DNA of 64,000 bases, taken from contig CAWEZH010000002.1 of NCBI GenBank assembly GCA_963813535.1, forward strand, positions 1,792,001 through 1,856,000. Reading direction: 5' to 3'. Positions 9,160 through 45,286 of the stretch are shown piece after piece (the stretch's first letter is position 1; every line of letters starts with the position of its first letter). A program made the translations under genes and the position numbers. Source of the DNA: an uncultured Chloroflexia bacterium. Its GTDB lineage: Bacteria; Chloroflexota; Limnocylindria; Limnocylindrales; CSP1-4. The notes under the pieces are model-generated. The model was not told the DNA's origin, did not search any database, and saw only the letters and a list, made by a program, of their open reading frames with translations.

Positions 9160-9190
9160 GAGTCGGCCCCGCGATGCGTGCGCCCAGCGC

Positions 9191-9781: not shown

Positions 9782-9800
9782 AAGCGTGAAAGCTTCCGAT

Positions 9801-11535
9801 TCAGTGCTCGGTCAACAGTTCACCTGCCGCGGCCTCCCTTCCGGGCCCTCGTCGTCGTCCCGGGTCCTGGGCGATGACCCGGCGCGCAAGCGATTCAGCA
9901 TCGAGGAACTTCCCATCCCTCGCGCCATACCGTGTGTTCGCCTCCATCAGCGAGGTCACTCGCAGATCGCACGCCCTCCAGCGCGCCGTGTCGGCGATCA
10001 CGTCCATCGGGGCTCCGTCGGCGATCACCCGACCGTCCCGAAACAGGAGGATACGGTCTGCATGCGTCAATGCAAGGTCCACGTCATGCGTGACGAAGTA
10101 CAGACTCTCCAGACCCGGGATGGCCACGACCTCGCGCATGAACGCGTGGGCCGTCCGGTGATCCTGTCCTGCTGACGGCTCGTCGAGGATGAGCGTCGCC
10201 GGCCGGAGGGCCAGGGCGATGGCCAGCGCGAGGCGTTTCTGCTGGCCGAACGACATCGCGAGCGGAGGCCGCTCGCGCACGTCTTCGAGGTCGGCGAGGG
10301 ACGTCCGCCGCAACACATCCTCGACCAGCGCCTCGAATGTTTCTGGATCGCGCCCGAGCATGCGTGGTCCGAAGAGCAACTCCTCTTCGACCGTCCGAGC
10401 GAACAGCATCTGGCTCGGGCTCTGGAACACGTAGCCGAACGTTTCGACCAGGTCGGTCGTGCGCCGGTCGGCGATCGTCCGGCCGTCGACGAGGACCGCT
10501 CCGCCGCTGATGCCGAGCAGTCGCATGGCCGTGCGGAACAGGGTGGTCTTGCCCGAGCCGTTCGGCCCGAGGACCGCGACGGTCTCCGTGGCGCCCAGCC
10601 TGGCATCGACCCCGAGCAGGATCTCGGTATCCATGATCGAGGCCGTGACATCCCGGAATTCGAGACGTGGCGGACGCTCGTCCTGCTTCTCGGGGAGCTG
10701 GCTGCGGCGTCCCCGGCCGCGGTTCTGGTGCCGTCGGTGGTCTGTCGTCCGGTGATGTCTCGGCGAGCCGTCGCACGACCACCTCGAACGGCAGCTTGAC
10801 CGACTCCGGGTCGGCGACCTCGAGGAACCCCGCCACGGGACCGATGTAGCGGGTCGATCCGGTTTCGAGATACAGGACCCGGTCGGGCCGCAGGTCGAGC
10901 GACTCCTCGACGCGGTGCTCGACGATCACGATGGCGCTGCCCTCGTCGGCGAGCGATCGCAGCAACGCCAGCAGGCGCTCGGCCGTCGCCGGATCGAGAT
11001 TCGCGAGCGGCTCGTCGACCACGAACAGGCGCGGGCGCAGCATCAGGATCCCGGCCACGGCGAGCAGCTGTCGCTCGCCGCCCGACAGCGCGCTCGTCTC
11101 GCGACCGAGCAGCCGGTGGATGCCGGCCTGGTCGGCGACCTCGCGGATCCGTTCGCGGATCTCCTCGCGCGGGATGCCGAAGTTCTCCGGCCCGAACGCC
11201 AGCTCCGCCTCGACCGTCGCCCCGACGATCTGCTTGGCCGGGTCCTGCAGCACCGTCCCGACCGTCCTGGCCAGATCGCGCAAGCGCAACTCCCGCGTGT
11301 CCTGCCCGTCGACCAGGATCGAGCCGCTGAGCTCGCCCGAGTAGGCGTGCGGGATCAGGCCGTTGATGGCCCGGATGAGCGTGCTCTTGCCGCAACCCGA
11401 CGGACCCGCCACCAGGACGACCTCGCCGGGCGACACGTCGAGCGAGACGTCGCGGATCGCCGGCTCCGAGGCGCGCCGGTAGCGAAAGGTCAGGCTGTCG
11501 ATCGCCACGATCGGCGTCGAACCAGGGTCGGTCAC
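9801..11535 (-). CDS. ECF transporter fused double ATPase (+1 frameshift near 10690, probably a sequencing error)
   Basis: Two ABC domains: GPSGCGKST/LSGGE/DEP and GPNGSGKTT/MSFGQ/DEP; GTG 11535 overlaps upstream TGA. Confidence 0.88.
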
Positions 11536-12378
11536 GCCTCGAGGACCTCGATGCGGATCGGCGTATCGATCTGGAGCCCGAAACGCTCCGCGGCCGAACC
11601 CTGGTTGACGGCGATCCCGAGGCCGCCGTAGTCGGCGTCCTCGTACAGGAGCGGCTCGCCGGCTGCGACCTCGCCGAACGTGACGTGCCACGGGACCACG
11701 ACGCCCGGCTCCGGGATCGCTCCGCCGGTCACCAGGAACCACCGACCCGCAAGCGACGCCGCATCCGGCGCGATCCCCGCGGCGCGTGCGAGGTCCTCCG
11801 GCCGGCCCGCCAGCCGGGCATTCCCGAACGAATCGATGAACAGCACGGCCGTCTCGAGGATGCCCTCGCCGACCCGCGGCTCCGGGAAGGTGATGTCGGT
11901 CAACGTCGCGGGATCGACCGCGGGACCCACGCCCTCCAACGACAGCCCGACGGCGAGATGCGCGGCGATGGGCGAGAAGATGTCTCGCCCGTGGAACGTC
12001 GATGAGACGGGGTCCAGGAAGAGCTCGGAGGACGTGATCTCATGGGCGGCCTCGAGGCCCCCGAGGGCGCGGGCGGCCGGCATCAGCAGGCCGTTGTCGG
12101 GCCCGACCAGCACGTCGCCGCGCCGTGCCCGGACCGCGATCGGCCGCCGTGCGGTCCCGACACCGGGGTCCACCACGGCCAGGTGGACGCCCACGGGCAG
12201 GTAGCCGACCATCCGCGCCAGCAGGAACGCGCCGTCACGCACTGCGTGCTTGCGGACCCCGTGGGTCAGGTCGAGGATGCGCGCGTCGGGCGCGATGCCC
12301 CACATCACGCCGCGGCACACGGCGGGTGCCGATTCGCGGGCCGAAATCGGTCAGGAACGAGATCAGTGGGCCGGCCAT
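11532..12378 (-). CDS. SAM hydroxide adenosyltransferase (DUF62, fluorinase/chlorinase superfamily), paralog 2; +1 frameshift near 12337
   Basis: MAGPLISFLTDFG then VVDPGVGTARR, GPDNG, STFHGRDIF, IDSFGN. Confidence 0.88.
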
Positions 12379-12400
12379 TCGGGTCGGTCTGGGTGGGCGT

Positions 12401-13225
12401 CTAGGCCGCGCGGATCCGCGCCGGTCGATCGAGCTCCAGGCCGAGCCGGCGCGCGGCGTCGCCCTGGTTGTCGGCCAGCGACAGCTGCCCCTCCGAGTCC
12501 GCCATCAGCAGCGACGAGCCGACCGGCACGCGCCCGAACGTGCGCTCCCAGACGGTCCGTTCCTGGATCGGCCCCGAGCCGTCGTACGCGGGGAAATCGA
12601 TGACGAGATCGCGACCCGGCTCGAGGGGTCCGACCGCGGCGACGAGATCATCCGGCGTGCCCGCAAGCGTGACGTTCCCGAAGATCAGGATGTTCGTGAT
12701 CGATGTGTCGAGCACGCCATCGCCCACCGTCGGGCGGATGTCGGGCAGCCGGACCAGGTCGTCGATCGGCACGGTCGGTCCGACCGACTCGAATGGCACC
12801 CCGTTGGCGAGGTGGGCGGCCATCGGCGAGAAGATGTCTCGGCCGTGGAAGCTCGACGTGATGACGGGCAGCATCAGGGCGCGGTTCTCCAGGACACGCG
12901 CCTCGACGATCCCGCCGAGGGTCTCGGCGGCGCTCACCAGCAATCCGTTGTCGGGACCGATGAGGACGTCGCCTCGGGCGACGCGCAGCGCAACGGGTAG
13001 CCGCTCCGTACCGACACCCGGATCGACGACGGCGACGTGGACGCCGACCGGCATGTGCTTCAGGGCGAAGTCGAGGGAGCGGGCACCGGAACGGATCGAG
13101 TACCGCGGCACCTGGTGGTTGATGTCGATGATGTTGGCGTCCGGGGAGATGCCGAACATCACGCCGCGGCAGACGGCCGGCGCCGACGGCCCGAAATCCG
13201 TGAGGAACGTGATGACCGGGCGCAT
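12401..13225 (-). CDS. SAM hydroxide adenosyltransferase (DUF62), paralog 1
   Basis: MRPVITFLTDFG, VVDPGVGTER, GPDNG, SFHGRDIF, DNQGDAA. Confidence 0.9.
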   Translation of the reverse strand: MRPVITFLTDFGPSAPAVCRGVMFGISPDANIIDINHQVPRYSIRSGARSLDFALKHMPVGVHVAVVDPGVGTERLPVALRVARGDVLIGPDNGLLVSAAETLGGIVEARVLENRALMLPVITSSFHGRDIFSPMAAHLANGVPFESVGPTVPIDDLVRLPDIRPTVGDGVLDTSITNILIFGNVTLAGTPDDLVAAVGPLEPGRDLVIDFPAYDGSGPIQERTVWERTFGRVPVGSSLLMADSEGQLSLADNQGDAARRLGLELDRPARIRAA

Positions 13226-13253
13226 CGGCGGATGGTACCAAGGCCCCGGACGC

Positions 13254-13293
13254 GTCGAAGCGGTGCCGGGAGGAGGTTCGGCACCGCTTCGAC
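13254..13293 (-). terminator. 15-bp perfect hairpin with CCUCCUCC loop on the minus strand
   Basis: GTCGAAGCGGTGCCG/CGGCACCGCTTCGAC; lies 3' of a small minus-strand ORF. Confidence 0.6.
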
Positions 13294-13347
13294 TTTCGAC
13301 CGTTCGGACCGATGAGGACGGGCCGGACGACCGGGATGTAATCGCGA

Positions 13348-13720
13348 TCAGTGCGGTCGGGCGCGGCCCTCCGTCGGACGGTCCGAAACGACCGGCCTGG
13401 ACGAGCGCCCGCAGGAACAGCAGGTCATTCACCTGGCGGAGGGACCAGTGGACCTCCGCGATCGGGATGCCGCACATGAATGCGGTCAGCGTTGCGGCCT
13501 CGTCAGGCGCGAGACCCCGACTCACGAGATGGCGGTAGGTCGAGCGCGTCACCAGCTGGGTCGTCTCGTCCCTGGCCTGTGTCGAGCTCGCGGAGCGCTT
13601 CGGGATCGTGGCCGCGGAGCCACGTCCTGCCGAGGACGCCGCCCCTGCCGACGATGCCGACGAAGCGCGGCGAAGCGATCGCCCGCGTTCCCGTGAACCT
13701 CGCTGCACCGGCCCGGCCAT
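13348..13720 (-). CDS. small hypothetical protein (a probable +1 error near 13360 hides the TGA at 13348-13350)
   Basis: Protein-like core TYRHLVSRGLAPDEAATLTAFMCGIP...WSLRQVNDLLFLR; start uncertain. Confidence 0.5.
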
Positions 13721-13902
13721 GTCCCACAGGACCCTCGTGTCTCTTGGTTCCGCCACGGACAGTCCGGTGCGGTACGGGGCATGCTGGTCGCGAGGCTGTC
13801 GGGTCGGCATGACCCATCGGTCCTATGCCGACGGTACTTCCGGCGACGACCCCGGGATGGTGACCTCGGGCAACGGACCGAGGGGTCGGTAGACTCCGCG
13901 CT

Positions 13903-16188: not shown

Positions 16189-16989
16189 ATGCACTCCACC
16201 TCACGCCGTCGGTGGCTGGCCGTCGCCATGCCCGCCGCACTGATCGCGGCCATCGCGATCACGGTCGTCGCCCCCACCGCGACCGGCACGTCTGCCTCGA
16301 CCGCCGAGTCATCCGTCATCGGATGGATCAACGCCGCGCGGTCGGCACGAGGCCTCGTCCCGCTCAGATATGACAGCGATCTCGCGTCGATCTCCGGGAT
16401 CCGCGCCAGCCGGATGGCGTCACGCAACGTGATGAGCCATACCGTCGGGGGCAACCTCACATCGCAGCTCAACGCCTATGGCGTGCAGTGGTTCCGCTAC
16501 GGCGAGGACATCGGCTGGTCGACCGCGTCGTGGCCGTCGACGTCGGCGAAGTCGATCTTCAATGCCTGGATGAGCAGCGCACCACACCGCGCGATGATCC
16601 TGAGCAACCGGTTCAACTACGTGGGCGTCGGGCTCGCCTATCGCTCGTCGGGTCACAGGACCTTCTCATCGGCGGTCTTCGCGGAGACGACCGACCACAC
16701 GAGGGCCGTCGCCCGGGTGACCCGCGCCACGCGATCCGGCAACGACGTCCGATGGTCGTGGAGCGGCTACGACCCGCGGCTGCAGACCCACACCGCCGGG
16801 CTGCGCAACTACGACGTGCAGTACCGCACGAATTACGGGGCGTGGCATCTGCTCCGGAACGACACGTCGCAGAGCTCGGTCACCATCTACAACAGGGGGA
16901 CCGGGACATACGCCGTCCGCGTGCGAGCCACCGACCGGCGTGGCAATGTGGGCGCATGGAGCAGCGAGGCTCGCATCCGGGTTCCCTGA
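16189..16989 (+). CDS. secreted CAP (SCP) domain protein with C-terminal fibronectin-III-like domain
   Basis: Signal peptide; INAARSARGL, GEDIG, WMSSAPHRAMIL, VGVG; YAVRVRATDRRGN; GGAGG RBS. Confidence 0.85.
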   Translation: MHSTSRRRWLAVAMPAALIAAIAITVVAPTATGTSASTAESSVIGWINAARSARGLVPLRYDSDLASISGIRASRMASRNVMSHTVGGNLTSQLNAYGVQWFRYGEDIGWSTASWPSTSAKSIFNAWMSSAPHRAMILSNRFNYVGVGLAYRSSGHRTFSSAVFAETTDHTRAVARVTRATRSGNDVRWSWSGYDPRLQTHTAGLRNYDVQYRTNYGAWHLLRNDTSQSSVTIYNRGTGTYAVRVRATDRRGNVGAWSSEARIRVP

Positions 16990-16996
16990 CCCGTCC

Positions 16997-18408
16997 ATGA
17001 GGCGGCACCCGTTTGCCGCCGTCAACCTGATCAGTGACCCGATCCACGGGTACATCGAGCTCACCAAGCGGCTGACGGCCGCCGAGTCGTCAGCCGCAGG
17101 TCTCCCGGCCGAGGACGTCGCCGAAGAGGACCTCCTCGACACGGCGTGGCTCCAGCGCCTTCGACGGATCAGCCAGCTGCAGAGTGCTCGGTGGGTCTTC
17201 CCGACCGCCGAGCATTCGCGCTTCACCCACGGTCTGGGCGTCATGCACGAGGCGGGCCTGTGGGCCCGCTCGCTCTATCCGAGCCTGCGCGCGGAGCTCG
17301 TGTCCGCGGGTGAGACCCCGATCCCCTCCGAGGGCCTGGTGACCGAGACGATGCGCATGGCCGGGCTGCTCCACGACGTCGGGCACGGGCCGTTCGCCCA
17401 CTTCTTCGACGACCACGTCCTGTCGGCGTTCGACGCACCCGATGATCCGCGCCGGCCCGACGCCAAGCGCCTCACCCACGAGGATCTCAGCGCCCGGATC
17501 ATCGGCGAGTCGGGCGACCTGCTGCGCGGGCTCCGACGCGCGCCGGGGGCGGTCGCCGAGCGCGACGCGCTAGCGGGACGATGAGGCGATCGACCCCGAC
17601 TGGGTCGCGTTCCTCATCGCCAAGCCTGCCCTCAGCGACCCGGGCATGCCGCGCTGGGTGCGCTGGCTGGCACCGCTGCTGTCTGGCGTGTTCACCGTCG
17701 ACAACCTCGACTACGTCCGGCGCGACGCGTACCTCACGGGGGTCACGGCGGGACCCGTCGACGTCGAGCGCCTGCGGCGCTACACGTTCATCGGCGCCGA
17801 GGGCCTGACGCTGTTCGAGCCCGGGCTCGGCGCCTTGGAGATGTTCCTGAGCTCCCGCCGGTTCATGTACCAGCAGGTGTACTTCCACCGGACGGTGCGG
17901 GCGATCGATCTCGATCTCGCGGACGTCTTCGGCCCGTCGATCGCGGCGATCTTCGGCGACGGCTCACCGGCCGACCGACTGCCGGCGTACGCCGACCTGG
18001 ACGAGTACGCACTCCTCCACCAGGCGGCGCGCTGGGCGCGCGGCCTCGACGTCGTCGACGCACGGGAGCGGTACTCCGGAGCCGGGTGACGGACGGGTGC
18101 AACGCCCGATCGCCGAAGCGTGGCGGGCGATCCTTCTCCGTCAGCCGACGTGGCGTGCGGAAGCCGAGGTCCGGTCGGAATACGAGGGCCGCGAGCCGCC
18201 GGCCCATGTCGTCGCGGCGCTCGGAGAGGCGGAGCCTGGTCGGGTCGCGATCGACCTGGCGGTCGTCGATGCGCGGCCCGCCGACGCGACCGCCACCGAC
18301 CGGCTGCTGGCCCTCGAAGGTCGCGACGGGCGGTCGATGTCGCTCGCCGCGGCGCTCGCCTCGATCCCGACGAACTGGCTGGTCGGCCGCCGCTACCGGC
18401 GGCGCTGA
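16997..18408 (+). CDS. HD-domain phosphohydrolase (dNTP triphosphohydrolase/SAMHD1-like); two +1 frameshifts near 17575 and 18062
   Basis: DPIHG, QRLRRISQL, HSRFTH, LLHDVGHGPF, DNLDYVRRD, MYQQVYFH. Confidence 0.85.
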
Positions 18409-19371: not shown

Positions 19372-20163
19372 ATGGCCGAGAGCCCGATCCGACCGCCGCT
19401 CGACGCCCCGGCCTCGGCATACGACAGGCACTGGATCGCCGCGCATCTCGCCGAGGAGCGACGAGCAAGTTCCCTGCTCGGCGAGATCCGCGAAGTGGTC
19501 TTCGGTCTCCAGGACGGCCTGGTCTCGACGCTCGCTGTCGTCGCGACCGTCGCCGGTGCCACCGGAGGGGCATTCCCGGTCGTCGTCGCCGGCATCGCCA
19601 GCGCACTCGCCGGGGTCTTCTCGATGGCTGCCGGCGAGTACATCGGCAGCAAGAGCCAGCGCGAGATCTTCGACGCCCAGATCCACGAGGAGCGCCACGA
19701 GGTCGATGAGCGCCCGGGCGAGGCGGAGGCGGAGGTCGCCTTCATGCTCGCCGAGGAAGGGCTTGGCGATGAGGATGCGCAGCGCATCGCCGCCCTCATG
19801 GCTCGCCATCCCGAGGTGCTCCTTCGGACCATGGTGACCCGCGAGCTCGGCATCCAGGTCGACGACCGTGGAGGGACCGTGCTGCGCGGCGCCGTGTTCA
19901 TGGGGGCCGCCTTCGGCATCGGCGCGCTGGTGCCGATCCTCCCGTTCCTGCTGCTCCCGTTCTCCACGTCACTACCGGCGGCCGTGATCGCGACGGGCGC
20001 GGTCCTGTTCGGGATCGGCGTCGTGAAGAGTCGCTGGACGCACCGCTCTGCGGCCGCGTCGGGCCTGGAAGTGCTCGTACTCGCGGCCGTCGCGGGTGTC
20101 GCCGGCTACCTGTTCGGGACGGTCCTGCCGGAAATCCTGGGTGTCGCCGGGATCACCGGCTAG
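19372..20163 (+). CDS. VIT1/CCC1 family Fe/Mn transporter
   Basis: REVVFGLQDGLVS, SMAAGEY, RELG, PILPF. Confidence 0.9.
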   Translation: MAESPIRPPLDAPASAYDRHWIAAHLAEERRASSLLGEIREVVFGLQDGLVSTLAVVATVAGATGGAFPVVVAGIASALAGVFSMAAGEYIGSKSQREIFDAQIHEERHEVDERPGEAEAEVAFMLAEEGLGDEDAQRIAALMARHPEVLLRTMVTRELGIQVDDRGGTVLRGAVFMGAAFGIGALVPILPFLLLPFSTSLPAAVIATGAVLFGIGVVKSRWTHRSAAASGLEVLVLAAVAGVAGYLFGTVLPEILGVAGITG

Positions 20164-22870
20164 GGGCGAGTCGCGCTCGAGCTGGCGCTGCGCCCACCCT
20201 GGCGGATCGCTGCCAGGACGCGGTCCGGCGTGGCCGGTACGACATCCATCCGGACGCCGGTCGCGTGGCGGATCGCGCCGAGGATCGCCGGTGCGGTCGG
20301 GATGAGGGCCGGCTCACCGACGCCCTTCGCGCCGAATGGCCCGGCCGGCTCGGCATCCTCCACGAGGATCGTCTCGATCGGCGGGATGTCGCCGATGGTC
20401 GGGATCAGGTAGTCGTGCAGGTTGTCGGTCCGGCCGGCCCGGTACTCCTCCATCAACGCGAACCCGAGGCCCTGGGCGATCCCGCCGTGGATCTGGCCCT
20501 CGACGAGCATCGGGTTGATGGCCCGACCGACGTCGTGCGCCGCGACGATCCGTCGGACGGACGTGGTGCCGAGCTCGAGGTCGACATCGACGACGGCGAT
20601 CTGCGCGCCGAACCCGTACGTCTCGTAGGGGATGCCCTGCCCGTCGGCATCGAGCGGCGTCGTCCGTGGATCGTAGCTCCCCTGCCCGACCAGGACGCAG
20701 CCGTCGGCGTCCTCGGGTAGCGCTCCGAGGTCCGGGCCGGCCATCTCGATCCGACGCAGCAGGTCGTCAGCCGCCAGCCGCGTCGCATTGCCCGACACGA
20801 ACGTCTGCCTCGACGCCGACGTCTTCCCGGCGTCGGCCGTACGGTCGGTGTCCCCGGTCACGAGATCGATCGTGGAGAGGGGGACGTCGAGTGCATCGGC
20901 CGCGATCTGACTCAAGATCGTCGACGAGCCCTGCCCGATATCCTGCGCGCCGCTGAACAGGACATAGCGACCATCGCGCCGGATGCCGATACGGATCGTC
21001 GATGGATTGGGCAGCGACGTGTTGCCGATGCCGTACCACATCGCCCCGATCCCGACGCCGCGCCGCGTGGGTCGGCCGGTCGCCGCCACCTCCGCATTCG
21101 AGCGTCGAGCGTCGTCGATCTCCTCCTGCCACGCCGGCCGCAGCGCCTCGAGGCACGGCGCCAGCCCGGCGCTGGCCTCCAGGACCTGGCCCGTGGCGGT
21201 CGTGGAACCGGCCCGCAGGACGTTCCGCAGGCGGATCTCGAGGCGGTCGAGACCGAGCTCCTCGGCGACATCGTCGATGAGCGCCTCGTGGGCGATCGCG
21301 GCCTGCGGGACGCCGAACCCGCGGAAGGCGCCACCGATCGGACCATTCGTGTAGATCGCGCGCGACGTGGCGCGCACCGCCGGCATGACGTAGGGGCCCG
21401 TCGCGTGCACGGGGACCCGGTTGGCCACGGTCGGTCCCCACGAGGCGTAGGCGCCCGTGTCGAAGTCGCCGTGGAAGTCGAAGGCGGTGAACCGACCGTC
21501 TGCGTCGGCACCGAGCGTGGCGGTCATCACGGCCGGGTGGCGCTTGGTCGTCGAACGCATCGATTCAGGACGCGTGTAGACGCATCGGACCGGTCGATCG
21601 AGCACCCACGCAGCGATCGCGACCAGCGGCTGGACCGCCATGTCGAGCTTGCCGCCGAACCCGCCACCACACGCCGTCGGTACGATGCGGACGCGCTCTG
21701 GAGCGATGCCCAGGACCAGCGCGACCTCGTCGCGGTCCATGTAGGGCGTCTGGGTCGAGACGACGACCGTGACCCGGTCACCTTCGCGCACCGCGTAGCC
21801 GGCTTCGGGCTCGATGTACGCGTGCTCGACGTGGCTCGTCCGGAACGTCCCGGTCGCGGTCGCTGACGAGCCGCGACAGGGCAGATGCGACGTCGCCGCG
21901 AGCGACCCGCCCGCTCGTCAGGACGTTGCCGGTCGACGCCTCGTGGAGCTGTCGCGCGCCGCCGGCGACGGCGTCGGCCGGGTCGATCAGCGGTTCGAGG
22001 GGTTCCCAGGCGATCGGCACCTCGTCGTCCGCGATGGCGGCGATCGTCGACGCGTCGCCGACCAGCGCCGCGACCGCCTCGCCGCGGTAGCGGACGTAGC
22101 CGTCGGCGAGCGCCGGCTGATCCTTGCCCGTCGCATAGATGCCGTAGCGGTTCTGGCCCGGGACATCGGCGGCGAGCAGGACCCGTTCGAGTCCGGGATG
22201 CGCGTCATGCAGCGTCGCCAGGTCGCCGACCGTGAACCGCGCGTGGGCGTGCGGCGAGCGCACCACCCGAAGATGCAGCACGCCGGCCGGGAGCACGATC
22301 CGCGCCGAACGCGCTGACGCCGGTGACCTGGTCGATCCCGTCGATGCGCGCGACGCGGGCACCGACCGCCGCGCCGGGTGGCGGGAGCGACGGCGCCTCG
22401 ACCCCATCGATCGACGTGACGGCGTCGATGATCTTGCGATAGCCGGTGCAGCGACACAGGACGCCGCCGAGCGCGGCCAAGACCTGGGCCTCGCCTGGCG
22501 CTGGTCGTGCGTCGAGCAATGCATCCGCGGCCATGAGCATGCCGGGTGTGCAGATCCCGCACTGTGCCCCGCCGGTCCGCACGAACGCGGCCTGGACGGG
22601 TGCCAGTTCGCCGTCCCGGGCCAGGCCCTCGACGGTCGCCACGTCGCGTCCGTCGACCTGGCCGAGGGGCACGAGACACGCGCACACCGGTTCGCCGTCG
22701 AGGCGCACCGTGCACGCCCCGCAGTCGCCGGCGTCACAGCCGACCTTCGTCCCGGTCATCCCGAGGTCATCCCGGAGGACGTCGCTCAGCCGCCGGATCG
22801 GATCGCCCGCCACGGCCACCTCCCGGCCGTTGACGAGAAAGGTCGTGGGGCGAGCGGCGACGTCGGTCAC
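20160..22870 (-). CDS. xanthine-dehydrogenase-family molybdoprotein, fused [2Fe-2S] + Moco subunits (nicotinate dehydrogenase NdhS-L-M-like); +1 frameshifts near 22293 and 21873
   Basis: GCDAGDCGACTV, QCGICTPG, CRCTGY; GGGFGGK, AFRGFGVPQ, WYGIGNTSLPNP, SASRQT, AKGVGE. Confidence 0.88.
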
Positions 22871-23703
22871 GCCAGGAGCTCCGCGACGGCGCGGCGGACC
22901 AGGGTCAGCGCCGCGTCGCGTCGATAGGTCCCGGTCCCACGGACGTCATCGATCGGCGTTAGGCCTGCGAGGTCGTCATCGACGATCCGTGCCGCCAGTG
23001 ACGGCGCCGCGACCTGACCGGCGAGGCGAGCCTCGACCGCCTCGACCCGCATCGGCACTTCGGAACAGGCGCCTACCACGATCCGTGCCGCTGCCACGCG
23101 CCCGCTCTGGTTGACGTCCACGACCGCGGCGATGCTGGCGATCGAGATCACGAGGTACTTCCGCGACCCGAGTTTGAGGAAGGTGGAGCGGGCGGTCGCC
23201 GATGGTTCGGGGACGATGATCGCCGTCACGAGTTCATCCCCGCGCCGGGCCGTCCTGCGATTGCCTTCCACGAAGTCGCCGACGGGCATCTCCCGCCGCC
23301 CGGCCCGTGAGGACAGCTCGACGCGCGCGTCGAGCGCCATCAGGTTCGGCAGCCCATCGGCCGCCGGCGACGCGTTGCACAGGTTGCCGACCACGGTCCC
23401 GCGATTCTGGATCTGGACCCCGCCGATCGAGCGCGCCGCGGCCTTCAGGCCATCGAAAGCCGCTGACAGCTCGGCGCGCACCAGGTCGGTCCAGGTGGCG
23501 AGGGCCGGGATCCGGACGACGCCGTCAGATATGGATATCGCGCGCAGCTCAGGCAGGGCGCTGACGTCGAGGACGTCATCCGCGATCGGTCGGCCGACGT
23601 TCGCGGGATACACGTCGGTCCCGCCGGCGAGCATCGTCCACGGCCGCTCAGCGAGCGCCCCGAGCGCCTCGTCGAGGCTGGTCGGTCGCAGGTAATCGGC
23701 CAT
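22867..23703 (-). CDS. FAD-binding subunit of the molybdenum hydroxylase (NdhF/CoxM-like)
   Basis: LAGGTD, QIQNRGTVVGNLCNASPAAD, PIDDVRGT-x-x-YR. Confidence 0.9.
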   Translation of the reverse strand: MADYLRPTSLDEALGALAERPWTMLAGGTDVYPANVGRPIADDVLDVSALPELRAISISDGVVRIPALATWTDLVRAELSAAFDGLKAAARSIGGVQIQNRGTVVGNLCNASPAADGLPNLMALDARVELSSRAGRREMPVGDFVEGNRRTARRGDELVTAIIVPEPSATARSTFLKLGSRKYLVISIASIAAVVDVNQSGRVAAARIVVGACSEVPMRVEAVEARLAGQVAAPSLAARIVDDDLAGLTPIDDVRGTGTYRRDAALTLVRRAVAELLA

Positions 23704-23708
23704 GGCCG

Positions 23709-24692
23709 TCAGTCGTGCAGCCGCGGCAGGACGTCGGACGCGATGCGCTCGAGCGTCTCGGGGCTCCAGTCGAGCGGGTTGAGGATCACGTGCTCGACGC
23801 CACCGAGCGCCTCGATCTTGCCGCGGATCCGGTCGGCCAGTGCCTCGGCCTCGCCGAGCAGATAGAACTCCTGCCAGTAATCGAGGTCCATACCCGAGAA
23901 GACGCGGAACCTCGGGGCTGCACTCTCCGGCGATTCGCCGGGCCCGAGGACGTGGATGAAATTCGAGTAGACCTTGGTCATCTCGTCGGGGTCGCGCCCG
24001 AGGCCGGCCATCTCTTCCCGGATGATCGCCCAATCCCCGGCGACCATCTCGGCCGTCGCCGACGAGTGGGGTACCCACGTCGATGCGTACTTGGCGATGC
24101 GCCGGAGTACGGGCCGGATCGTATCGACCGACTGGCCGTAGATCTTCTCGGACGGCTGGGTCCCGCCGCCGATCCAGATCGGCGGATGCGGTCGCTGGGC
24201 CGGCTTCGGCTCGATCGTCAGGTGTTCGAACCGGTAGAACTGTCCCTCGTAGCTCACGTCGTCACCCGCCCACAACGCGGTGATCGCCTCGAGCATCTCG
24301 TTCATCCGGCGACCCCGCTCACGAAGCGGGATGCGCAGCGCCTCGAATTCGCCGGGGTGCCATCCGACACCGACCCCGAGGATCGAGCGTCCGCCGGACA
24401 GCACGTCGAGCGTCGCCCACTCCTTGGCGAACGCGACCGGATCGCGGAAGGGGAGCACCAGGACGAGGGTCCCGAGTCGGATCGTCCGGGTGACGCCGGC
24501 CAAGCCCGACAGCAACGACACCGGCTCCAGCCAAGTCGTTCGATAGGCCGGCGGCGCGACGAGCAGGTGGTCGATGAGGAGCGCGCTCTCGAAGCCGAGG
24601 TCCTCCGCCCGTCGCAGGTAGGCCCCCATGTCGGCAAGGCTCGCCGTCTCCGAACCGAGCGCGAAGCTGGGGAGCCGGAGGCCGAAGCGCAT
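23709..24692 (-). CDS. LLM class flavin-dependent oxidoreductase (probable F420-dependent type)
   Basis: AEDLGF...DH, IRLGT, ATLDVLSGGR, GVGW, PKP..PHPPIWIGG. Confidence 0.88.
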   Translation of the reverse strand: MRFGLRLPSFALGSETASLADMGAYLRRAEDLGFESALLIDHLLVAPPAYRTTWLEPVSLLSGLAGVTRTIRLGTLVLVLPFRDPVAFAKEWATLDVLSGGRSILGVGVGWHPGEFEALRIPLRERGRRMNEMLEAITALWAGDDVSYEGQFYRFEHLTIEPKPAQRPHPPIWIGGGTQPSEKIYGQSVDTIRPVLRRIAKYASTWVPHSSATAEMVAGDWAIIREEMAGLGRDPDEMTKVYSNFIHVLGPGESPESAAPRFRVFSGMDLDYWQEFYLLGEAEALADRIRGKIEALGGVEHVILNPLDWSPETLERIASDVLPRLHD

Positions 24693-25876
24693 CAGTGACC
24701 GCCGCCGGCGACCGCGATGCCCTTGACGACCTCCGCCATCCGCGTCGCTGGGGCGGTGTTCCGGCTCCGGCCGATGAGCGGCGTCCCATCGACGAGCACC
24801 ATCGAGACGCCCGGGATGTCGCCGTTCGTCAATGCCTCCAGTGCGGTCGTGCCGACCGACCCGACCGGAGCATCGACGATGCACAGGTCGGCGGCCTTTC
24901 CCGGCGCGATCACGCCGGTGTCGAGCCGATGCACGCGGGCGGTGTTTCCGGTCGCGAACGCGACGACGGACTCGGGCGCAACGGCGCCGAGCGACGCGAG
25001 GTGGGCCATCAGCCGCAGGATGCCCAGCGGGATCACGCCCGTTCCGGACGGCGCGTCGTTGCCCAGGATCACGCGCCCGAGCGATCCGGCGTCCGCAGCC
25101 ATGCGCAGCGCGTAGAGCGCGGTCCGGCCGTTGCCGCAATGGACGAGCTCCAAGGCGATCCCCGTGTCGGCGGCGACGAGCCGGTCGATGTCCGATTCCG
25201 GCAACGAGGTCGTCCCGCCGTTGATGTGGCCGGCCACGTCCGGGTCGGCCTCGAGGACCACGTCGGCGCCGATCGCCCCCGACCCGGGTAGCGACGGACC
25301 ACCCGTATGGAACGTCGAGACCATGCCGTGTGCGCGGGCCCAGGCCACCATCGGCGCGGCATCCGCGCCGGACCTCACGGACCCGAGCCCGATCTCACCG
25401 ATCAGCGTGACGCCACCGGCGGCCATCTCGGCGAAGTCGGCCTCGACCAGTCCGTGCTCGAGGATCGGTGCTCCGGCCCGGACCTTCACGCCACCCGGCC
25501 GGAACGTGGCATACGCACGGGCGATGGCGATGGCCAGCGCCTTCAGGCCGACGATGTCCTTGGGCCGGCCCGGCACGTGCGGCTCACCGGCCGAGATCAT
25601 CGTCGTGACCCCACCGTGGAGCGACGACTCGATGAAGTCGATCGTCCGCTGGCGCGGCGTGAAGTCGCCGACCGTCGGGTGCGCGTGTGAGTCGATGAGG
25701 CCGGGTATGACCGTCGTCCCGCCCGCGTCGATGACGACGTCGGCCGACTCGCTGTCGAGGTTGCGTCCCACCGCCTCGATTCGACCGTCGATGATCGATA
25801 TCGAGTCGCCGTCGAGCAGCGGCGCGTCGATGTCGCCCGAGACGACCTGGCCGATGCCGGTGATCAGCGTCCGCAC
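24692..25876 (-). CDS. ena: enamidase-like amidohydrolase
   Basis: IGQVVSGDI, PGLIDSHAH, PRQRTIDF, LHGGVTTMISAG, PGRPKD, HINGG, GNDAPSGTGVIPLGILR, SRNT: motifs recalled from Eubacterium barkeri enamidase. Confidence 0.85.
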   Translation of the reverse strand: MRTLITGIGQVVSGDIDAPLLDGDSISIIDGRIEAVGRNLDSESADVVIDAGGTTVIPGLIDSHAHPTVGDFTPRQRTIDFIESSLHGGVTTMISAGEPHVPGRPKDIVGLKALAIAIARAYATFRPGGVKVRAGAPILEHGLVEADFAEMAAGGVTLIGEIGLGSVRSGADAAPMVAWARAHGMVSTFHTGGPSLPGSGAIGADVVLEADPDVAGHINGGTTSLPESDIDRLVAADTGIALELVHCGNGRTALYALRMAADAGSLGRVILGNDAPSGTGVIPLGILRLMAHLASLGAVAPESVVAFATGNTARVHRLDTGVIAPGKAADLCIVDAPVGSVGTTALEALTNGDIPGVSMVLVDGTPLIGRSRNTAPATRMAEVVKGIAVAGGGH

Positions 25877-25886
25877 GATCGATGCC

Positions 25887-26459
25887 TCAGCGCAGGCCGT
25901 CCTCGCCCACGGCGTCGGATGCCGCGAGCCCTCCGATCCGTGCATGTGGCCGGCCGGCATTGGTGACAGCCAGCGCGAGCAGCAGCTCGTCGGCCCCCGG
26001 CGCGTCCGGTACGGAGATGGTGACCGCATCGAAATGGGAGCGGACGAGCATCGCCTTGATGTGGTGGACCGGGATGTCGAGCGTTGCGCCCATCGCGGCA
26101 CGCTTCTTGACCGACGGCAGGATCGACACGCCGTTCGTGCGGGTACGGGTCGGCTGCCCGAACTTGGGGTGAAGGACCGCGGCGACGTGCTCGAGCTCGC
26201 CGTGCTCACCGACGATGCCGCCCTTGCCATACGCCTCGACCGGTCCTTCGAGCGCCTCCTGGCAGCGACGGGTCAGCTCGTCGCCGAGGTACTCGCCGAA
26301 GTCGATGAGCTCCGCCAGGTCATCCGACCACGTGCCGGCATACGGGTTGGTGCAGATGACCGCGACGGCGACGCGCCGAAGCGGACGCTCGAGATCGCGC
26401 TCGCCATCGACCACGATCTCCTCGCGGAACGTCGCCCATTTGCGGATCCTGATGGCCAC
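25887..26459 (-). CDS. 'amino acid synthesis' family protein (DUF1185)
   Basis: IRK, NPYAG, AYGKGGIVG..GELEH, RSHFD, DAPGADE, GRPHARIGGL; GGAGGAGG RBS. Confidence 0.85.
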   Translation of the reverse strand: MAIRIRKWATFREEIVVDGERDLERPLRRVAVAVICTNPYAGTWSDDLAELIDFGEYLGDELTRRCQEALEGPVEAYGKGGIVGEHGELEHVAAVLHPKFGQPTRTRTNGVSILPSVKKRAAMGATLDIPVHHIKAMLVRSHFDAVTISVPDAPGADELLLALAVTNAGRPHARIGGLAASDAVGEDGLR

Positions 26460-26560
26460 GGTGCTCCTCCTCCGACCAGTCCGCCGTCGCTCCCTACCCG
26501 CACAGACTAGAATGTCCACGCCAACGGCCGGTGGCAAACCGACCTGGCGAGGATGGTCGC

Positions 26561-27355
26561 GTGGAAGAATCACACGCTGATTCCCGAAGGGCGCTCGTGC
26601 TCCACGATCGATCGATGGTGGTCGATCTCATCCAGCTCACGCTGAATCACGGCCTGTTCATCGTGAGTGCGGCCCGGGACCTCGCCGAGGCACAGGCGAT
26701 CATCGCTCGATGGCGTCCGCACATCGGCGTCGTCGACATGGACCATGCCGACAGCGCGCGATTGCTGCGTGTGCTCGGCGTCTCGAGCACCCTGGACAGG
26801 AGCGTGACGCCGGTCCTCGGCCTGACGCGTCGCGGCGACCTCTCCACCAAACTCCGCGCCTTCGATCTGGGCGTGGACGACATCCTGACGGTGCCCTTCT
26901 CGCCGGAGGAGCTGCTGGCTCGGTGCGTCGTCATCGCTCGGCGTTCGACGGGGAATGAGCGGCCGATCGTGCCGACGATCACCATCGGCGAGATCGAGAT
27001 CGACATCGTCAATCGACAGGTTCGAGCGGGGGACTCGGTCATCCACCTGAGCGGGATCGAGCAAAGCCTGCTGTACCTCCTCGCGAGTCGGAGCGGCCGC
27101 GTGCTCACGCGCGACGACATCCTGGACGCGATCTGGGGGACGGATTTCGTCGCCGAAAGCAACATCGTCGATCGCCACATCCGGAGTCTGCGCATCAAGC
27201 TCCAGAACGACTACCGGCACCCTCGCTTCATCGCGACCGTCCCCGGTGTCGGATACCGGTTCATCCCGACCTTCTCGAACCAGGGATGGCAGGACGGTGT
27301 GGCCGCCGGTGGAGGAGATCCCGAGTCTTCCACAGGAGATGACGAGTCGTCATGA
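26561..27355 (+). CDS. OmpR/PhoB-family response regulator with atypical receiver
   Basis: GVDDILTVPFSPEELLAR; winged helix SNIVDRHIRSLRIKL...IATVPGVGYRF. Confidence 0.88.
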   Translation: MEESHADSRRALVLHDRSMVVDLIQLTLNHGLFIVSAARDLAEAQAIIARWRPHIGVVDMDHADSARLLRVLGVSSTLDRSVTPVLGLTRRGDLSTKLRAFDLGVDDILTVPFSPEELLARCVVIARRSTGNERPIVPTITIGEIEIDIVNRQVRAGDSVIHLSGIEQSLLYLLASRSGRVLTRDDILDAIWGTDFVAESNIVDRHIRSLRIKLQNDYRHPRFIATVPGVGYRFIPTFSNQGWQDGVAAGGGDPESSTGDDESS

Positions 27356-35010: not shown

Positions 35011-35766
35011 ATGGATGCATCGACGCTGTCGCGCGCCTGGTCCTGGCTGATCGCCGCCCCTGCCGACACGATCACGGAAGCGGACCGCCGAACGGTCGAC
35101 GTGGTCGGGCTCGATCTGCCCATCCGGGCATCGATCGCCGTGGCAGCGACGACCCTGCTGCTGCTCGTCGACTTCTCGCGCGTGCTGATCCCTGCATCGA
35201 TCCAGGACCTCGGGCATTCCGCAGCCGGTTTGCGGGCGATCGCGCTGGAACGGGTGGTGCTGTTCGGTGCGATCCCTTTGGCTATCGTCCTGCTCGGCTT
35301 CCGCGATCGACCCGCGCGCTACGGCATCACCCTTGGCGACGGCCGAGCGGGTGCCGTTCTCGCGCTGGTCGGCTGCATCGTCATGACGCCGATCGTGCTC
35401 TGGTTCGTGTCCCTTCCGGATGTCCGCGCCTACTACTCGGTCAGCGCCGCCCCGTTGAGCGAGGTCGTCATCACGAACGTCCTCGACCTGACGTCCTCGG
35501 AGTTCCTGTTCCGGGGCTTCCTGATGTTCACGCTGATCCGCGCGATCGGCCCGCTCGGCGTGCTCATCAGTGTCATGCCCTTCGCCTTCGGGCACCTCGG
35601 CAAGCCCGTCCTCGAGCTCCTCTCGACGCTCGTCGGCGGGCTCGCCTACGGCTGGCTGGCGTGGCGGACGCGATCGATCGTCTGGGGATCGATCGCGCAC
35701 GTCTACATCCTCAGCCTGGTGACCCTGGCGGCCGCGGCGGCCGTCGGGTCGGCCTCTACGCGGTGA
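35011..35766 (+). CDS. CPBP/Abi family intramembrane glutamic protease
   Basis: SEFLFRG, FAFGH, RTRSIVWGSIAH. Confidence 0.85.
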   Translation: MDASTLSRAWSWLIAAPADTITEADRRTVDVVGLDLPIRASIAVAATTLLLLVDFSRVLIPASIQDLGHSAAGLRAIALERVVLFGAIPLAIVLLGFRDRPARYGITLGDGRAGAVLALVGCIVMTPIVLWFVSLPDVRAYYSVSAAPLSEVVITNVLDLTSSEFLFRGFLMFTLIRAIGPLGVLISVMPFAFGHLGKPVLELLSTLVGGLAYGWLAWRTRSIVWGSIAHVYILSLVTLAAAAAVGSASTR

Positions 35767-37159
35767 CCGCGGCCGGCAGCCAGCCCGGCTCCGGGTCGCC
35801 GAACTTCCCGACGAGGTAGTCGCGCGACGCCTCGACTGCGCGACGTGGCCCGTCGAGCTCGGCAGTCAGCCTGAAGTCACGCTTCATGATCCGGCCGTCG
35901 ATGAGCACGGTCTTGACGTTGGAGATGTCTGCCGCGCACACCACCGCCCCGACGGGGTCGATGATCGGCGCGACGTTCACGGCGGACCCGTCGAGGACGA
36001 CGATGTCCGCCTTCTTGCCCGGCGTGATCGAGCCGGTACGGTCTGCCAGGCCGGCGACGACCGCGCCACCCTGTGTCGCCCACGAGAGGACCTGGCGCGA
36101 GGTGATGAGACCGGGCGAGGCCGTCAGGCCGTCGAGATCGTCGTCCCATGCCGCCTGGTGCTTCCGGCCACGCTCGGATCCGAAGATCGCATGCATCTGC
36201 GTGAACTGGTCGGCCGAGGCCGTCGTGGCGACGTCCGACGACAGGGCCATCGGCACGTCGAATTCGAGCGCCTTGACCGCCGGCGCCCAACCGTGGCCCA
36301 TCTGGATCTCGATCTGCGGGGCGAACGAGACGTTGCCACCGGAATCGCGGACGAGCCCCCACTCCTCGTCGGTGAAATGCGAGCCGTGGACGTATGTCGT
36401 TCCCGGATACAGGAGGTCGAGGTCGCGCAGCCCGGTGATCTGCCCCTTCGTGTAGCCGAACCGATCCATGCCCACATGGACCGTGATGTTGACGCCCAGC
36501 TCCTTGGCCAGCTCCCAATCGTGACGCACGACATCGGGCTTGCAGAAGCCCGTGCCACGCGTCGCCAGACCCATCGTGATCAGCCCGTCGTCGGAGGCGA
36601 AGTACTGCTTCCGGACGCGACGGGCGTCGTCGCCCGGTGTCGTGAGTTCGCTGCCGGCGAAGTCGGGACCGAACCACCAATCCTGCAGCGACGTGTTCGG
36701 GAAGCCGTACGCGAAGACCGACCGGATGCCCGATTCCTGGAGACCCCGGACCGCCTCGTCGGCGTGGGCGGGCGTGTTCATGATGTGCGACCAGTCGACG
36801 AGCGTCGTGATGCCCGCATTGATGCACTCGAGCGAGCCCCAGAGATTGGCCGCGTAGACATCGTCGGGGCGGTAGTGCGGCGCGAACTTGTCGAGGATCG
36901 ATCCGAAGTACGTGATCAGCGCGAAGTCGGGCGCCGAGGTCCGGATCGATGTCTCCCAGGTATGTCGATGGGTATCGATGAACCCCGGGATGACGATGTC
37001 GCCCCCCGCGTCGATGACGTCGGCGTCGGCCGCGTCGAGGTTCGGACCGACGGCTTCGATCAGATCGTCCTCGATGAGGATGTCGGCTTTCGGCAGCTCG
37101 CCGAGCTTGTCGTCCTGGGTCAGGACGATGCCGCCCTTGATCAACGTCCGGTTGCTCAC
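35756..37159 (-). CDS. metal-dependent amidohydrolase/deaminase
   Basis: PGFIDTHRH, GITTLVDWSH, TVHVG, LSSD, GSITPGKKADIV. Confidence 0.88.
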   Translation of the reverse strand: MSNRTLIKGGIVLTQDDKLGELPKADILIEDDLIEAVGPNLDAADADVIDAGGDIVIPGFIDTHRHTWETSIRTSAPDFALITYFGSILDKFAPHYRPDDVYAANLWGSLECINAGITTLVDWSHIMNTPAHADEAVRGLQESGIRSVFAYGFPNTSLQDWWFGPDFAGSELTTPGDDARRVRKQYFASDDGLITMGLATRGTGFCKPDVVRHDWELAKELGVNITVHVGMDRFGYTKGQITGLRDLDLLYPGTTYVHGSHFTDEEWGLVRDSGGNVSFAPQIEIQMGHGWAPAVKALEFDVPMALSSDVATTASADQFTQMHAIFGSERGRKHQAAWDDDLDGLTASPGLITSRQVLSWATQGGAVVAGLADRTGSITPGKKADIVVLDGSAVNVAPIIDPVGAVVCAADISNVKTVLIDGRIMKRDFRLTAELDGPRRAVEASRDYLVGKFGDPEPGWLPAAVTA

Positions 37160-37202
37160 GTGTGCCTCCTCTCGAACGGGCCTCGATCACGCCGGGTGAC
37201 GA

Positions 37203-38111: not shown

Positions 38112-38119
38112 GGTGCCGC

Positions 38120-40113: not shown

Positions 40114-40127
40114 CGACGGTCGGTGCG

Positions 40128-41490: not shown

Positions 41491-41590
41491 GTTCAACATC
41501 GTTACACAACGGACAAGAGCACGTCCAGTCCCAGTCGAGGGTGTGGTGGAGGGCTCACCGAGCCGCAGCGGACAGCCCGGTTACTCCGCG

Positions 41591-44030: not shown

Positions 44031-44522
44031 CTACGCCCGGGCAGCGCCCGCCGCTCCCCAGCGCTTGAGCTCAGCATCGAGGTCGAGCGGCATCACGACG
44101 CCCTTGCTCTCGTACTCACCCCACGCCTCGCGCGGGACACGCCACATGATCTCGAACTCGTTGCCGTCCGGGTCGGCGCCGTAGAGCGACTTGCTCACAC
44201 CGTGATCGGACGCGCCGCCGAGGGCCCGCTCGTCCGACAACGTCTGGGCCGCCGCGGCGAGGTCGTCGATGGTCGGGACCTCCCAGGCCAGGTGGTACAG
44301 GCCGACCGAGCCGCGCGCGGGCCGCGGTGCGTCCGGTCCGACCGAGAACAGGCCAAGATCGTGGTGGTTCTCGCCACTCGCCGAGCGCAGGAAGACGGCT
44401 CGGCCACCGAAGGCGCTTTCCACCACCTCGAACCCGAAGACACGGCCATAGAACTCGGCCGACGCCGTGGCGTCACGGACGTACAGGACGGCGTGGTTCA
44501 ACCGCGCGACCGGGATGCTCAT
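44031..44522 (-). CDS. VOC/glyoxalase family protein
   Basis: LNHAVLYV, HHDLGLF, GLYHLAW, SLYGADPDGNEFE. Confidence 0.9.
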   Translation of the reverse strand: MSIPVARLNHAVLYVRDATASAEFYGRVFGFEVVESAFGGRAVFLRSASGENHHDLGLFSVGPDAPRPARGSVGLYHLAWEVPTIDDLAAAAQTLSDERALGGASDHGVSKSLYGADPDGNEFEIMWRVPREAWGEYESKGVVMPLDLDAELKRWGAAGAARA

Positions 44523-45187
44523 GACCTGCCGGCTCCGCCGGTCTGACTCGCCGCGCCGGCAGGAGCGCCGACCAGCTTCCAGCCCGACTGCCACGTGCCC
44601 TCGTTGACGATGTTGAGCGCCATGTTCAGGAATGCCAGCGCTTCGAGCTGCCGGGCTCGGACGAGCGGGCCGACGTCGATCGGGCGGAGACCGACCGCGC
44701 GGACCAGCTCGAGGACCTTGGCCTTGGCCTTCGGATCGTCGCCGGCGACGTACCCGTCGAGCTGAAGGCCGTCGGCCATCGGGTCGACCTGATGCGTCGC
44801 GAACAGCGTGTTGAAAGCCTTGACGACCTGGCTGTCGGGGAGGAGCGCCGCCACGGCTTCAGCGTTCGACGAGGTAGTGTCGATGTCCGGGCCGGCCTCG
44901 CCGAACGAGATCCGGTTGGTGACGTCGACGACCGGCTTGCCCGCGGCAGGCGCGGCGATGTCGGCGGCGACCGCCTCGAGGTTGTCGAACCCGACGGCCG
45001 GGATGACGACGTCACCCTCCGCTGCGGCTTCGGCATTCGTTTCGACCGATCTCGCGCCCGATGCAGCCGCCGCGTCCGCGGCGTCCTTGGCGTGGCGCGA
45101 CGTGATGATGACGTCATGTCCCGCGCGCGCGAGCGACGTTGCGAGGGCTGTGCCGACGTTGCCGGCTCCGATGATCGCGACCTTCAT
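44519..45187 (-). CDS. npdG: NADPH-dependent F420 reductase family oxidoreductase
   Basis: IIGAGNVG, VVDVTN, SNAE, VVKAFN, AGDD, D.GPL..AR.LE. Confidence 0.8.
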   Translation of the reverse strand: MKVAIIGAGNVGTALATSLARAGHDVIITSRHAKDAADAAAASGARSVETNAEAAAEGDVVIPAVGFDNLEAVAADIAAPAAGKPVVDVTNRISFGEAGPDIDTTSSNAEAVAALLPDSQVVKAFNTLFATHQVDPMADGLQLDGYVAGDDPKAKAKVLELVRAVGLRPIDVGPLVRARQLEALAFLNMALNIVNEGTWQSGWKLVGAPAGAASQTGGAGRS

Positions 45188-45246
45188 CGCATGATCCTCC
45201 ATTCGCTCCGAGACTCCCGGGCCTCGGCTGTTTCGTTGCTTCCGCA

Positions 45247-45286
45247 ACCATAGTCGGATGTTATACTGATGTCAATACCGTATTGA
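45247..45286 (-). promoter_or_regulatory. promoter TTGACA-N17-TATGGT overlapped by a 7-1-7 palindrome TCAATAC-C-GTATTGA
   Basis: -35 at 45270-45275, -10 at 45247-45252, palindrome at 45272-45286, between the divergent XRE and npdG genes. Confidence 0.65.

Follow-up and report, generated by a model that had tools for sequence, protein, structure and literature searches.

How is the pyridine ring reduced in a nicotinate-type catabolic operon that places a luciferase-like oxidoreductase (LLM) between a predicted ring-opening enamidase and a predicted nicotinate hydroxylase, where a ring reductase of another kind would be expected? The question is raised by five genes on the minus strand (26459 to 20160) of a 64,000-nucleotide stretch, hereafter the window, of an uncultured member of Chloroflexota, which corresponds to C2:1792001-1856000 of the host genome (G000; 3.28 Mb in three contigs, ∼70% G+C, 92.9% complete). 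The closest named relatives of this soil bacterium are metagenome-assembled genomes of Chloroflexota/Candidatus Limnocylindrales. To our knowledge, Hnr, an oxygen-sensitive enzyme that depends on ferredoxin, is the sole reductase described for the ring-reduction route of nicotinate catabolism. In the upper pathway of Eubacterium barkeri, as outlined in two papers, NdhFSLM hydroxylates nicotinate, Hnr reduces the product, and Ena hydrolyses it (PMC9304392, PMC3511419). From our analysis, the operon would encode the upper part of this route with LLM as an F420H2-dependent 6-hydroxynicotinate ring reductase replacing Hnr, a reading to which we give a probability of about 0.55.

The five-gene operon and its proposed reactions

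The genes lie head to tail and are translationally coupled through overlaps and gaps of 5 and 10 nucleotides (nt), as a first-pass annotation of the window had claimed. Behind a strong ribosome-binding site (GGAGGAGGAG), the first gene starts with GTG at 26459 and encodes a DUF1185/AA_synth protein of 190 amino acids (aa) (25887..26459; PF06684, 211.9 bits in Pfam). The enamidase orthologue (24692..25876; 394 aa; Pfam Amidohydro_1/3) has its GTG start at 25876, 10 nt past the AA_synth stop, and meets LLM (23709..24692; 327 aa; PF00296 Bac_luciferase, 167.7 bits) in a TGATG overlap at 24692. The flavin adenine dinucleotide (FAD) subunit of a molybdenum hydroxylase (22867..23703; 278 aa; FAD_binding_5 133.9 bits and CO_deh_flav_C 59.9 bits) starts with ATG at 23703, 5 nt past the LLM stop, and a GTGA overlap at 22870 joins it to the fused 2Fe-2S/hammerhead/molybdenum cofactor (Moco) subunit (20160..22870; ∼890 aa in relatives), whose Fer2/Fer2_2, Ald_Xan_dh_C, and MoCoBD_1 plus MoCoBD_2 domains are spread across three pieces. 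Both motifs that the annotation had quoted, WYGIGNTSLPNP and AFRGFGVPQ, were recovered inside the open reading frame (ORF) 20160-21791, and WYGIGNT also starts the NdhM of Desulfosporosinus. The flanks of the operon are unrelated to it: a convergent VIT1 gene borders one end, and a divergent gene for an OmpR-type response regulator (26531-27355) borders the other; inspection of the flanking genes found no later nicotinate-pathway genes nearby, and there is no flavin reductase within ∼6 kb on either side. Synteny past 26459 extends to only one (L001) of the five relatives compared, and the cluster is accessory, being carried by 2 of 18 same-genus genomes.

The amidohydrolase aligned with the E. 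barkeri enamidase (PDB 2VUN) along residues 4-385 on 3-385, with the HxH motif aligned (E 9.1e-132, 443 bits), and the next PDB match was at E 2e-6. It is an orthologue of enamidase (EC 3.5.2.18), and its predicted role is to open the ring of 1,4,5,6-tetrahydro-6-oxonicotinate (THON) by hydrolysis and to deaminate it; its homologues form more than 8000 clusters, many of them labelled enamidase by JGI. The hydroxylase parts matched the E. barkeri Ndh subunits (3HRD) with 302.6 bits for L, 230.7 for M, and 133.6 for S, which sum to 667 bits, and are 46-51% identical to the Desulfosporosinus Ndh parts; XdhB-type NCBIfam matches of the FAD subunit stayed under their cut-offs. The fused subunit also matched the Desulfovibrio aldehyde oxidoreductase MOP (1DGJ, 1SIJ) over its full length with 425.6 bits, and the two share the same one-chain layout of fused 2Fe-2S and Moco domains of ∼900 aa; here, however, the FAD subunit has a gene of its own in front, and the Ndh subunits score higher in sum (667 vs. 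425.6 bits). The enzyme is thus of the xanthine dehydrogenase family and related to nicotinate dehydrogenase, and its likeness to Ndh suggests that it makes 6-hydroxynicotinate from nicotinate. The DUF1185 gene accompanies the enamidase irrespective of the reductase, in 57 of 58 loci of the LLM type and 11 of 11 of the Hnr type among those surveyed below. Its solved fold resembles Bacillus chorismate mutase (PMC2954203), and this fixed companion of the enamidase may act on the enamine or aldehyde that the latter produces.

In the route that we propose, the molybdenum hydroxylase (FAD subunit plus fused FeS/Moco subunit) would deliver 6-hydroxynicotinate, LLM would then add a hydride, drawn from F420H2, at C4 of the 6-pyridone, with protonation at C5, to give THON, and the enamidase would open the THON ring and free ammonia, leaving 2-formylglutarate. 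The second step is the new part of the proposal: it would be a reduction of the Michael type, at the C4=C5 bond that is in conjugation with the lactam carbonyl, and LLM would stand in for both Hnr, an FeS flavoprotein dependent on ferredoxin, and its companion orf290. 6-Hydroxynicotinate is a 6-pyridone and THON is the same molecule with C4-C5 saturated, and the addition of a hydride to C4 and a proton to C5 is ene-reductase chemistry. F420 is an obligate two-electron carrier with a potential lower than that of NAD(P)H, and this lower potential fits a step that E. barkeri drives with ferredoxin.

Known F420H2-dependent luciferase-like hydride transferases lend the step some precedent. In a 2021 review on F420 (PMC8498797), enzymes of this kind act as reductases on the picrate ring, on dehydroalanine (LxmJ), and, in the case of Apd6, on cyclic imines or exocyclic double bonds, and none is listed there for pyridone or nicotinate-derived substrates. 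LLM has the same fold and the same NCBIfam class as this group (picrate reductase Fht/Npd, LxmJ, Apd6, and Mer), and an NpdG-like gene occurs in the window. The targets of the known members are electron-poor rings, enamide C=C bonds, and cyclic imines; LLM itself stands apart from them, with a best PDB sequence match of only 82.6 bits and the nearest full-length representatives outside its orthologue group at ∼40% identity. A literature search, with most subscription journals outside its coverage, returned no publication in which nicotinate is broken down through an F420- or LLM-dependent step.

If the proposal holds, LLM would represent a new enzyme activity and would plainly illustrate how an enzyme can be displaced by an unrelated one, and a large, generically annotated, and soil-abundant set of genes would gain a function. 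It would also bear on the use of F420 by Chloroflexi; why they make or use it is posed as an unanswered question in the F420 review (PMC8498797). That LLM truly is an F420H2-dependent 6-hydroxynicotinate reductase, and with this the first luciferase-like hydride transferase acting on a pyridone ring in primary catabolism, a physiological role for F420 in Chloroflexota and Methylomirabilota, and a case of vitamin B3 breakdown dependent on Fo scavenged from neighbours, is a claim we make tentatively, at slightly under even odds. Such an enzyme could serve as an oxygen-tolerant biocatalyst for the partial reduction of pyridones.

LLM and Hnr beside enamidase genes

The locus of Desulfosporosinus sp. 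I2 (L040) is a complete cluster of the E. barkeri type, consisting of ndhFSLM, a major facilitator superfamily (MFS) transporter, ena, Hnr (492 aa, with an N-terminal 2x[4Fe-4S] domain), orf290 (L040:12680-13552; 290 aa, without a Pfam family), DUF1185, Hgd, Hmd, Dmd, Mgm, and Mii. The cluster in the window has in common with it the Ndh-related molybdenum hydroxylase, the enamidase orthologue, DUF1185, and presumably the logic of hydroxylation, reduction, and hydrolysis, whereas it has an F420-class LLM instead of Hnr and orf290, has the FeS, L, and M parts of the hydroxylase fused in one gene, and lacks Hgd, Hmd, Mgm, Mii, and Dmd. A second known arrangement is the aerobic THON-route cluster of proteobacteria (Azorhizobium caulinodans and Bradyrhizobiaceae SG-6C), which is described as comprising the first three steps, an ATP-binding cassette (ABC) transporter, and two conserved unknowns (PMC3511419). 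Since this cluster covers steps 1-3 only, ours differs from it only by LLM in the place of Hnr and orf290. Both are compact three-step modules with conserved unknowns, but the proteobacterial one retains an Hnr homologue (39% identical in locus L053, and 42% identical to the E. barkeri Hnr according to PMC3511419) along with orf290, and the sole proteobacterial genome of the Hnr type tested, that of L053, has no cofE.

The first-pass annotation had reported no Hnr in the window, and the genome search extends this to the entire assembly: with the Desulfosporosinus Hnr as the tblastn query, the sole match in the 92.9% complete host genome was a 47-residue ferredoxin motif at E 0.001, and the Desulfosporosinus orf290 found no match there. 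All Hnr searches of genomes used this one protein query, as no NCBIfam model exists for Hnr. No full Hnr match was found in five other genomes of the LLM type, nor an LLM match of any kind in five genomes of the Hnr type. LLM shows no similarity to Hnr and falls outside the Hnr sequence family (N-terminal 2x[4Fe-4S] domain plus Hnr body); therefore, it could only be a functional analogue of Hnr.

We then surveyed the neighbourhoods of 79 enamidase loci from species-representative genomes for the mutual exclusion of LLM and Hnr, and the two exclude each other completely. An LLM orthologue lies on the same strand as ena in 58 loci, accompanied by DUF1185 in 57 and by neither Hnr nor orf290 in any; Hnr lies beside ena in 11, all with orf290 and DUF1185 and none with LLM; no locus carries both. 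Four loci have neither despite at least 5 kb of flank (L041, L056, L064, and L067), one of which (L067) holds orf290 and, where its contig ends, a fragment of Hnr, and in the remaining six, the flank was too short for judgement. The occurrence of orf290 strictly follows Hnr (11 of 11 loci and L067, against 0 of 58 loci of the LLM type). Its matches to the PRK04334 "hypothetical protein" models reached 226 bits, under the cut-off; we take this family to be ApbE-like, as would suit a protein that helps in the flavinylation of Hnr, and orf290 is probably a helper or maturation factor of Hnr.

Two of the four loci with neither gene show enamidase-like genes in unrelated company. In Pseudolabrys (L064, ∼10001-11150), an enamidase-like gene and DUF1185 occur with isochorismatase, FAD monooxygenase, enoyl-CoA hydratase, and GntR genes, and in Anaerotruncus (L056, ∼10001-11150), an enamidase-like gene occurs with two DUF1185 genes, RraA-like genes, and a 2-hydroxyacid dehydrogenase. 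Ndh, Hnr, and LLM are all missing from both loci, and these pairs may belong to other cyclic-amide pathways.

Approached from the side of LLM, the association is equally strict. In an even draw of a further 400 genomes of the phylum, five carried an LLM orthologue, all of them in the family of the window's genome and all with the same five-gene order. Among the 80 best LLM loci from metagenomes, ena and DUF1185 lie upstream in all 36 with at least 2 kb of upstream sequence, hydroxylase genes lie downstream in all 50 with at least 1 kb of downstream sequence, and Hnr is found in none of the 80. Loci of Methylomirabilota/Rokubacteria have the order ena-DUF1185-LLM and a different type of Moco subunit (31-33% identity), with the core of ena, LLM, and DUF1185 kept. 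Across the genome draw, the ena loci, and the metagenome loci, LLM orthologues occur only within this cluster. A search of a library of 1.84 billion representatives returned 500 relatives of LLM at E 1e-30, and the identity of the full-length ones falls from 56% and 53% to ∼40%, so the orthologues form a compact group. With 444 relatives in one scan, their family is abundant in metagenomes from soil; its public names are generic (TIGR03619 family at NCBI, with one record reading "LLM class flavin-dependent oxidoreductase"), and about two dozen paralogues of LLM occur in the host genome.

A quick IQ-TREE phylogeny of 66 enamidase rows placed the enamidases of the LLM type in one clade of 50 rows (SH-aLRT 87, below the 95 mark). 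The sister group of this clade is proteobacterial and contains the Hnr-type locus L053 (joint support 97), and the Hnr-type enamidases of Firmicutes fall outside both. The enamidases beside LLM would thus be bracketed by Hnr-linked ones, which supports an unchanged enamidase function on both sides of the switch.

Cofactor of LLM and rival readings

LLM matched TIGR03619, an F420-dependent class of luciferase-like enzymes, with 202.1 bits against a cut-off of 166.9, and its second-best NCBIfam match is another F420 subfamily. Its AlphaFold (AF2) model is a luciferase-like TIM barrel of high confidence (pLDDT 96.6). The supply of F420, on which the ring reduction supposed in the first-pass annotation would depend, was borne out in one part: cofD (297.3 bits), cofC (138.9 bits), and cofE (248.5 bits) all exceed their curated cut-offs and lie together at C2:1316047-1318371, flanked by LLM paralogues, but the Fo synthase genes cofG/cofH were not found. 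In the taxonomic family, 34 of 40 other genomes have cofE and 2 of 40 have cofH, and in two single-contig genomes of the family, cofE is present and cofH was not found. In this lineage, F420 appears to be built on a head group taken up from outside (scavenged Fo) or on one made by a synthase of a kind not yet known. When genomes are compared by cluster, cofE occurs in 51 of 56 of the LLM type including the host (5 of 5 and 45 of 50 others) and in none of the five of the Hnr type. Taken together, the missing Hnr, the cofC/D/E genes, the TIGR03619 match, and the survey counts of 58, 11, and 0 support the earlier supposition that LLM carries out the ring reduction through F420H2, a reaction that is predicted from sequence and gene context.

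Several observations weigh against this assignment or limit it. Foldseek searches with the LLM model returned Mer, Fgd, Adf, SfnG, and others at E ∼1e-18 to 1e-21 and placed FMN (flavin mononucleotide) enzymes (SfnG, RslO1) and F420 enzymes (Mer, Fgd, Adf) equally, so that the fold does not discriminate between the two cofactors. Fo synthase (cofG/cofH, fbiC) is without a match in the host genome at 92.9% completeness, and no Fgd or Fno attains its cut-off there. Because cofE is common in the family with or without the cluster, its pattern shows compatibility only and not linkage. As the LLM-type enamidases form a single clade, the 58-to-11 split would count as one switch event confounded with phylum and not as many independent replications. 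The first-pass annotation had also pointed to an NpdG-like F420 reductase and pntAB later in the window; the genes are there, with a putative NADPH:F420 oxidoreductase at 44519..45247 on the minus strand (TIGR01915 104.4 bits against a cut-off of 149.8; PF03807 69.9 bits), pntA at 47463-48620, and a pntB-like gene at 48858-50390 (421 bits against a cut-off of 689), but at 18-25 kb from the operon a link to it is unsupported, and the NpdG-like gene is a candidate only for the supply of F420H2. It is less likely, as a further variant, that F420 receives its electrons straight from the FAD subunit of the hydroxylase, which would close a redox loop between hydroxylation and ring reduction.

Among the other explanations, LLM could act after ring opening, as an F420-dependent 2-formylglutarate/2-(hydroxymethyl)glutarate oxidoreductase in the place of Hgd, with the ring being reduced by an unlinked enzyme, e.g., of the Old Yellow Enzyme (OYE) family. 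F420-dependent LLMs do include the alcohol and carbonyl oxidoreductases Adf, Fgd, fHMAD, and fPKR in the review (PMC8498797), and the distribution of Hgd would agree, as the Hnr-type clusters of Firmicutes carry it and no Hgd homologue lies beside clusters of the LLM type, where the sole match, in L015, is a generic dehydrogenase with 33% identity. Two OYE-family genes elsewhere in the genome could reduce the ring, but they are more than 1 Mb away, and the five-gene operon would then miss the very step that produces the substrate of its enamidase. Both Hgd and LLM are missing from the proteobacterial Hnr-type locus L053, and therefore LLM is exclusive with Hnr and orf290 and not with Hgd; the published proteobacterial cluster is likewise said to stop at step 3 (PMC3511419). 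We consider this explanation unlikely. We consider it similarly unlikely that the cluster degrades another pyridine or pyridone carboxylate, with LLM still a ring reductase for a related 6-oxo-heterocycle. The specificity of the hydroxylase is not readable from its sequence, the Moco subunit of the Methylomirabilota variant is only distantly related, and pairs of ena and DUF1185 do exist in unrelated contexts (L064 and L056); against this stand the full-length match of the enamidase to the characterized enzyme, its bracketing by Hnr-linked enamidases, and the 667 bits of the three hydroxylase parts on the E. barkeri Ndh subunits.

A use of FMN by LLM, whether for an FMNH2-dependent reduction or in a two-component monooxygenase reaction on a pyridone, seems more doubtful still. 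The best PDB matches by sequence and fold include the FMN enzymes RslO1 (7BIP) and SfnG (8T0U), the rarity of cofH in the family and its absence from the host search would suit an enzyme independent of F420, and the single NCBI record quoted above calls an orthologue flavin-dependent. Nevertheless, the two top NCBIfam matches are both F420 subfamilies, with TIGR03619 above its cut-off, the operon and its surroundings hold no flavin reductase, cofE marks 51 of 56 genomes of the LLM type vs. 0 of 5 of the Hnr type, and the product of a monooxygenase would not suit the enamidase as a substrate. None of these explanations accounts as well as an F420H2-dependent ring reductase for the occurrence of LLM only in this cluster and only where Hnr and orf290 are gone.

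Frame breaks and other gene strings in the window

The FeS/Moco gene of the hydroxylase is split over three frames in this assembly, with frame changes near 22292 and 21873, which the first-pass annotation did not mention. The orthologues in L001 and L005 are single intact ORFs of 894 aa and 885 aa. DNA alignment showed one surplus base relative to the orthologues at each break on the minus strand, at 22292 (GTGC[T]CCCGG) and at 21873..21874 (CTGTCG[C]GGCTCG), and apart from the breaks, the gene retains 89-96% protein identity to L001. Programmed frameshifting was ruled out, as the orthologues are single open frames. The breaks are most likely 1-base insertion errors of the assembly, and the hydroxylase gene is then intact in the organism. 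Of 93 conserved ORFs that were taken from two congeneric short-read genomes and compared with the host genome, six were frame-broken in the host (∼0.057 breaks per kb), including rpoC (C2:73763; 93% identical over 1500 aa), argS (near C3:727266), and der (near C2:768864); an Fgd-family LLM (C3:933153-934134) is frame-broken as well. All five breaks examined at the DNA level, that of rpoC among them, are 1-base insertions, and since essential genes such as rpoC cannot be pseudogenes, the breaks belong to an error type of this assembly. A reference-free frameshift detector based on G+C at third codon positions (GC3) missed known breaks; its count was discarded, and the homology test was used instead.

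That the breaks are genuine, with the hydroxylase a recent pseudogene in a decaying operon, is highly improbable, but a small probability is kept for it because the local density of breaks is well over the genome mean. A conserved gene at 16940-18405 on the plus strand (no Pfam family; 488-490 aa in relatives) is likewise split into three frames, by 1-base insertions at 17574 and 18061 vs. L001 and L005, which makes four breaks in two genes within 6 kb. The accessory nature of the cluster would also agree with decay, and no sequencing run contained at least half of the sampled words (best share 0.30), so that the comparison rests on contigs of close relatives. In these contigs, from soil and permafrost, the surplus base at 21874 is omitted in all that cover it (runs X1, X2, and X3); at 22292, the X1 contig omits the base throughout (4.93 of 4.93), whereas the X3 contigs do not (0 of 6.15 depth), which counts against a simple insertion error at this site. 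These findings emphasize that apparent pseudogenes in this genome should be distrusted. Several same-genus genomes with 6-20 contigs (among G011-G028) have a marker completeness of only 59-87%, which would fit indel-rich long-read assemblies.

Beyond the operon, the window holds a second gene string of catabolic look at 35756-41414 on the minus strand, comprising a 467-aa amidohydrolase, an NAD_binding_2 dehydrogenase (35% identical to the Desulfosporosinus Hgd), 2-oxoacid dehydrogenase E1 beta and alpha subunits, and an M24 peptidase. It is followed at 41489-47436 by two helix-turn-helix (HTH)-cupin regulators, a bicupin, a short-chain dehydrogenase/reductase (SDR), a glyoxalase-fold protein, the NpdG-like reductase, a tryptophan 2,3-dioxygenase, and a CMD-family protein, and then by the pntA and pntB-like genes (47463-50390). 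On the other side of the operon, the minus strand at 8302-13810 encodes an energy-coupling factor (ECF)-type transporter, with a CbiQ-like T component, a riboflavin-type S component, and two ABC ATPase ORFs, which adjoins two tandem S-adenosylmethionine (SAM) hydroxide adenosyltransferase genes.

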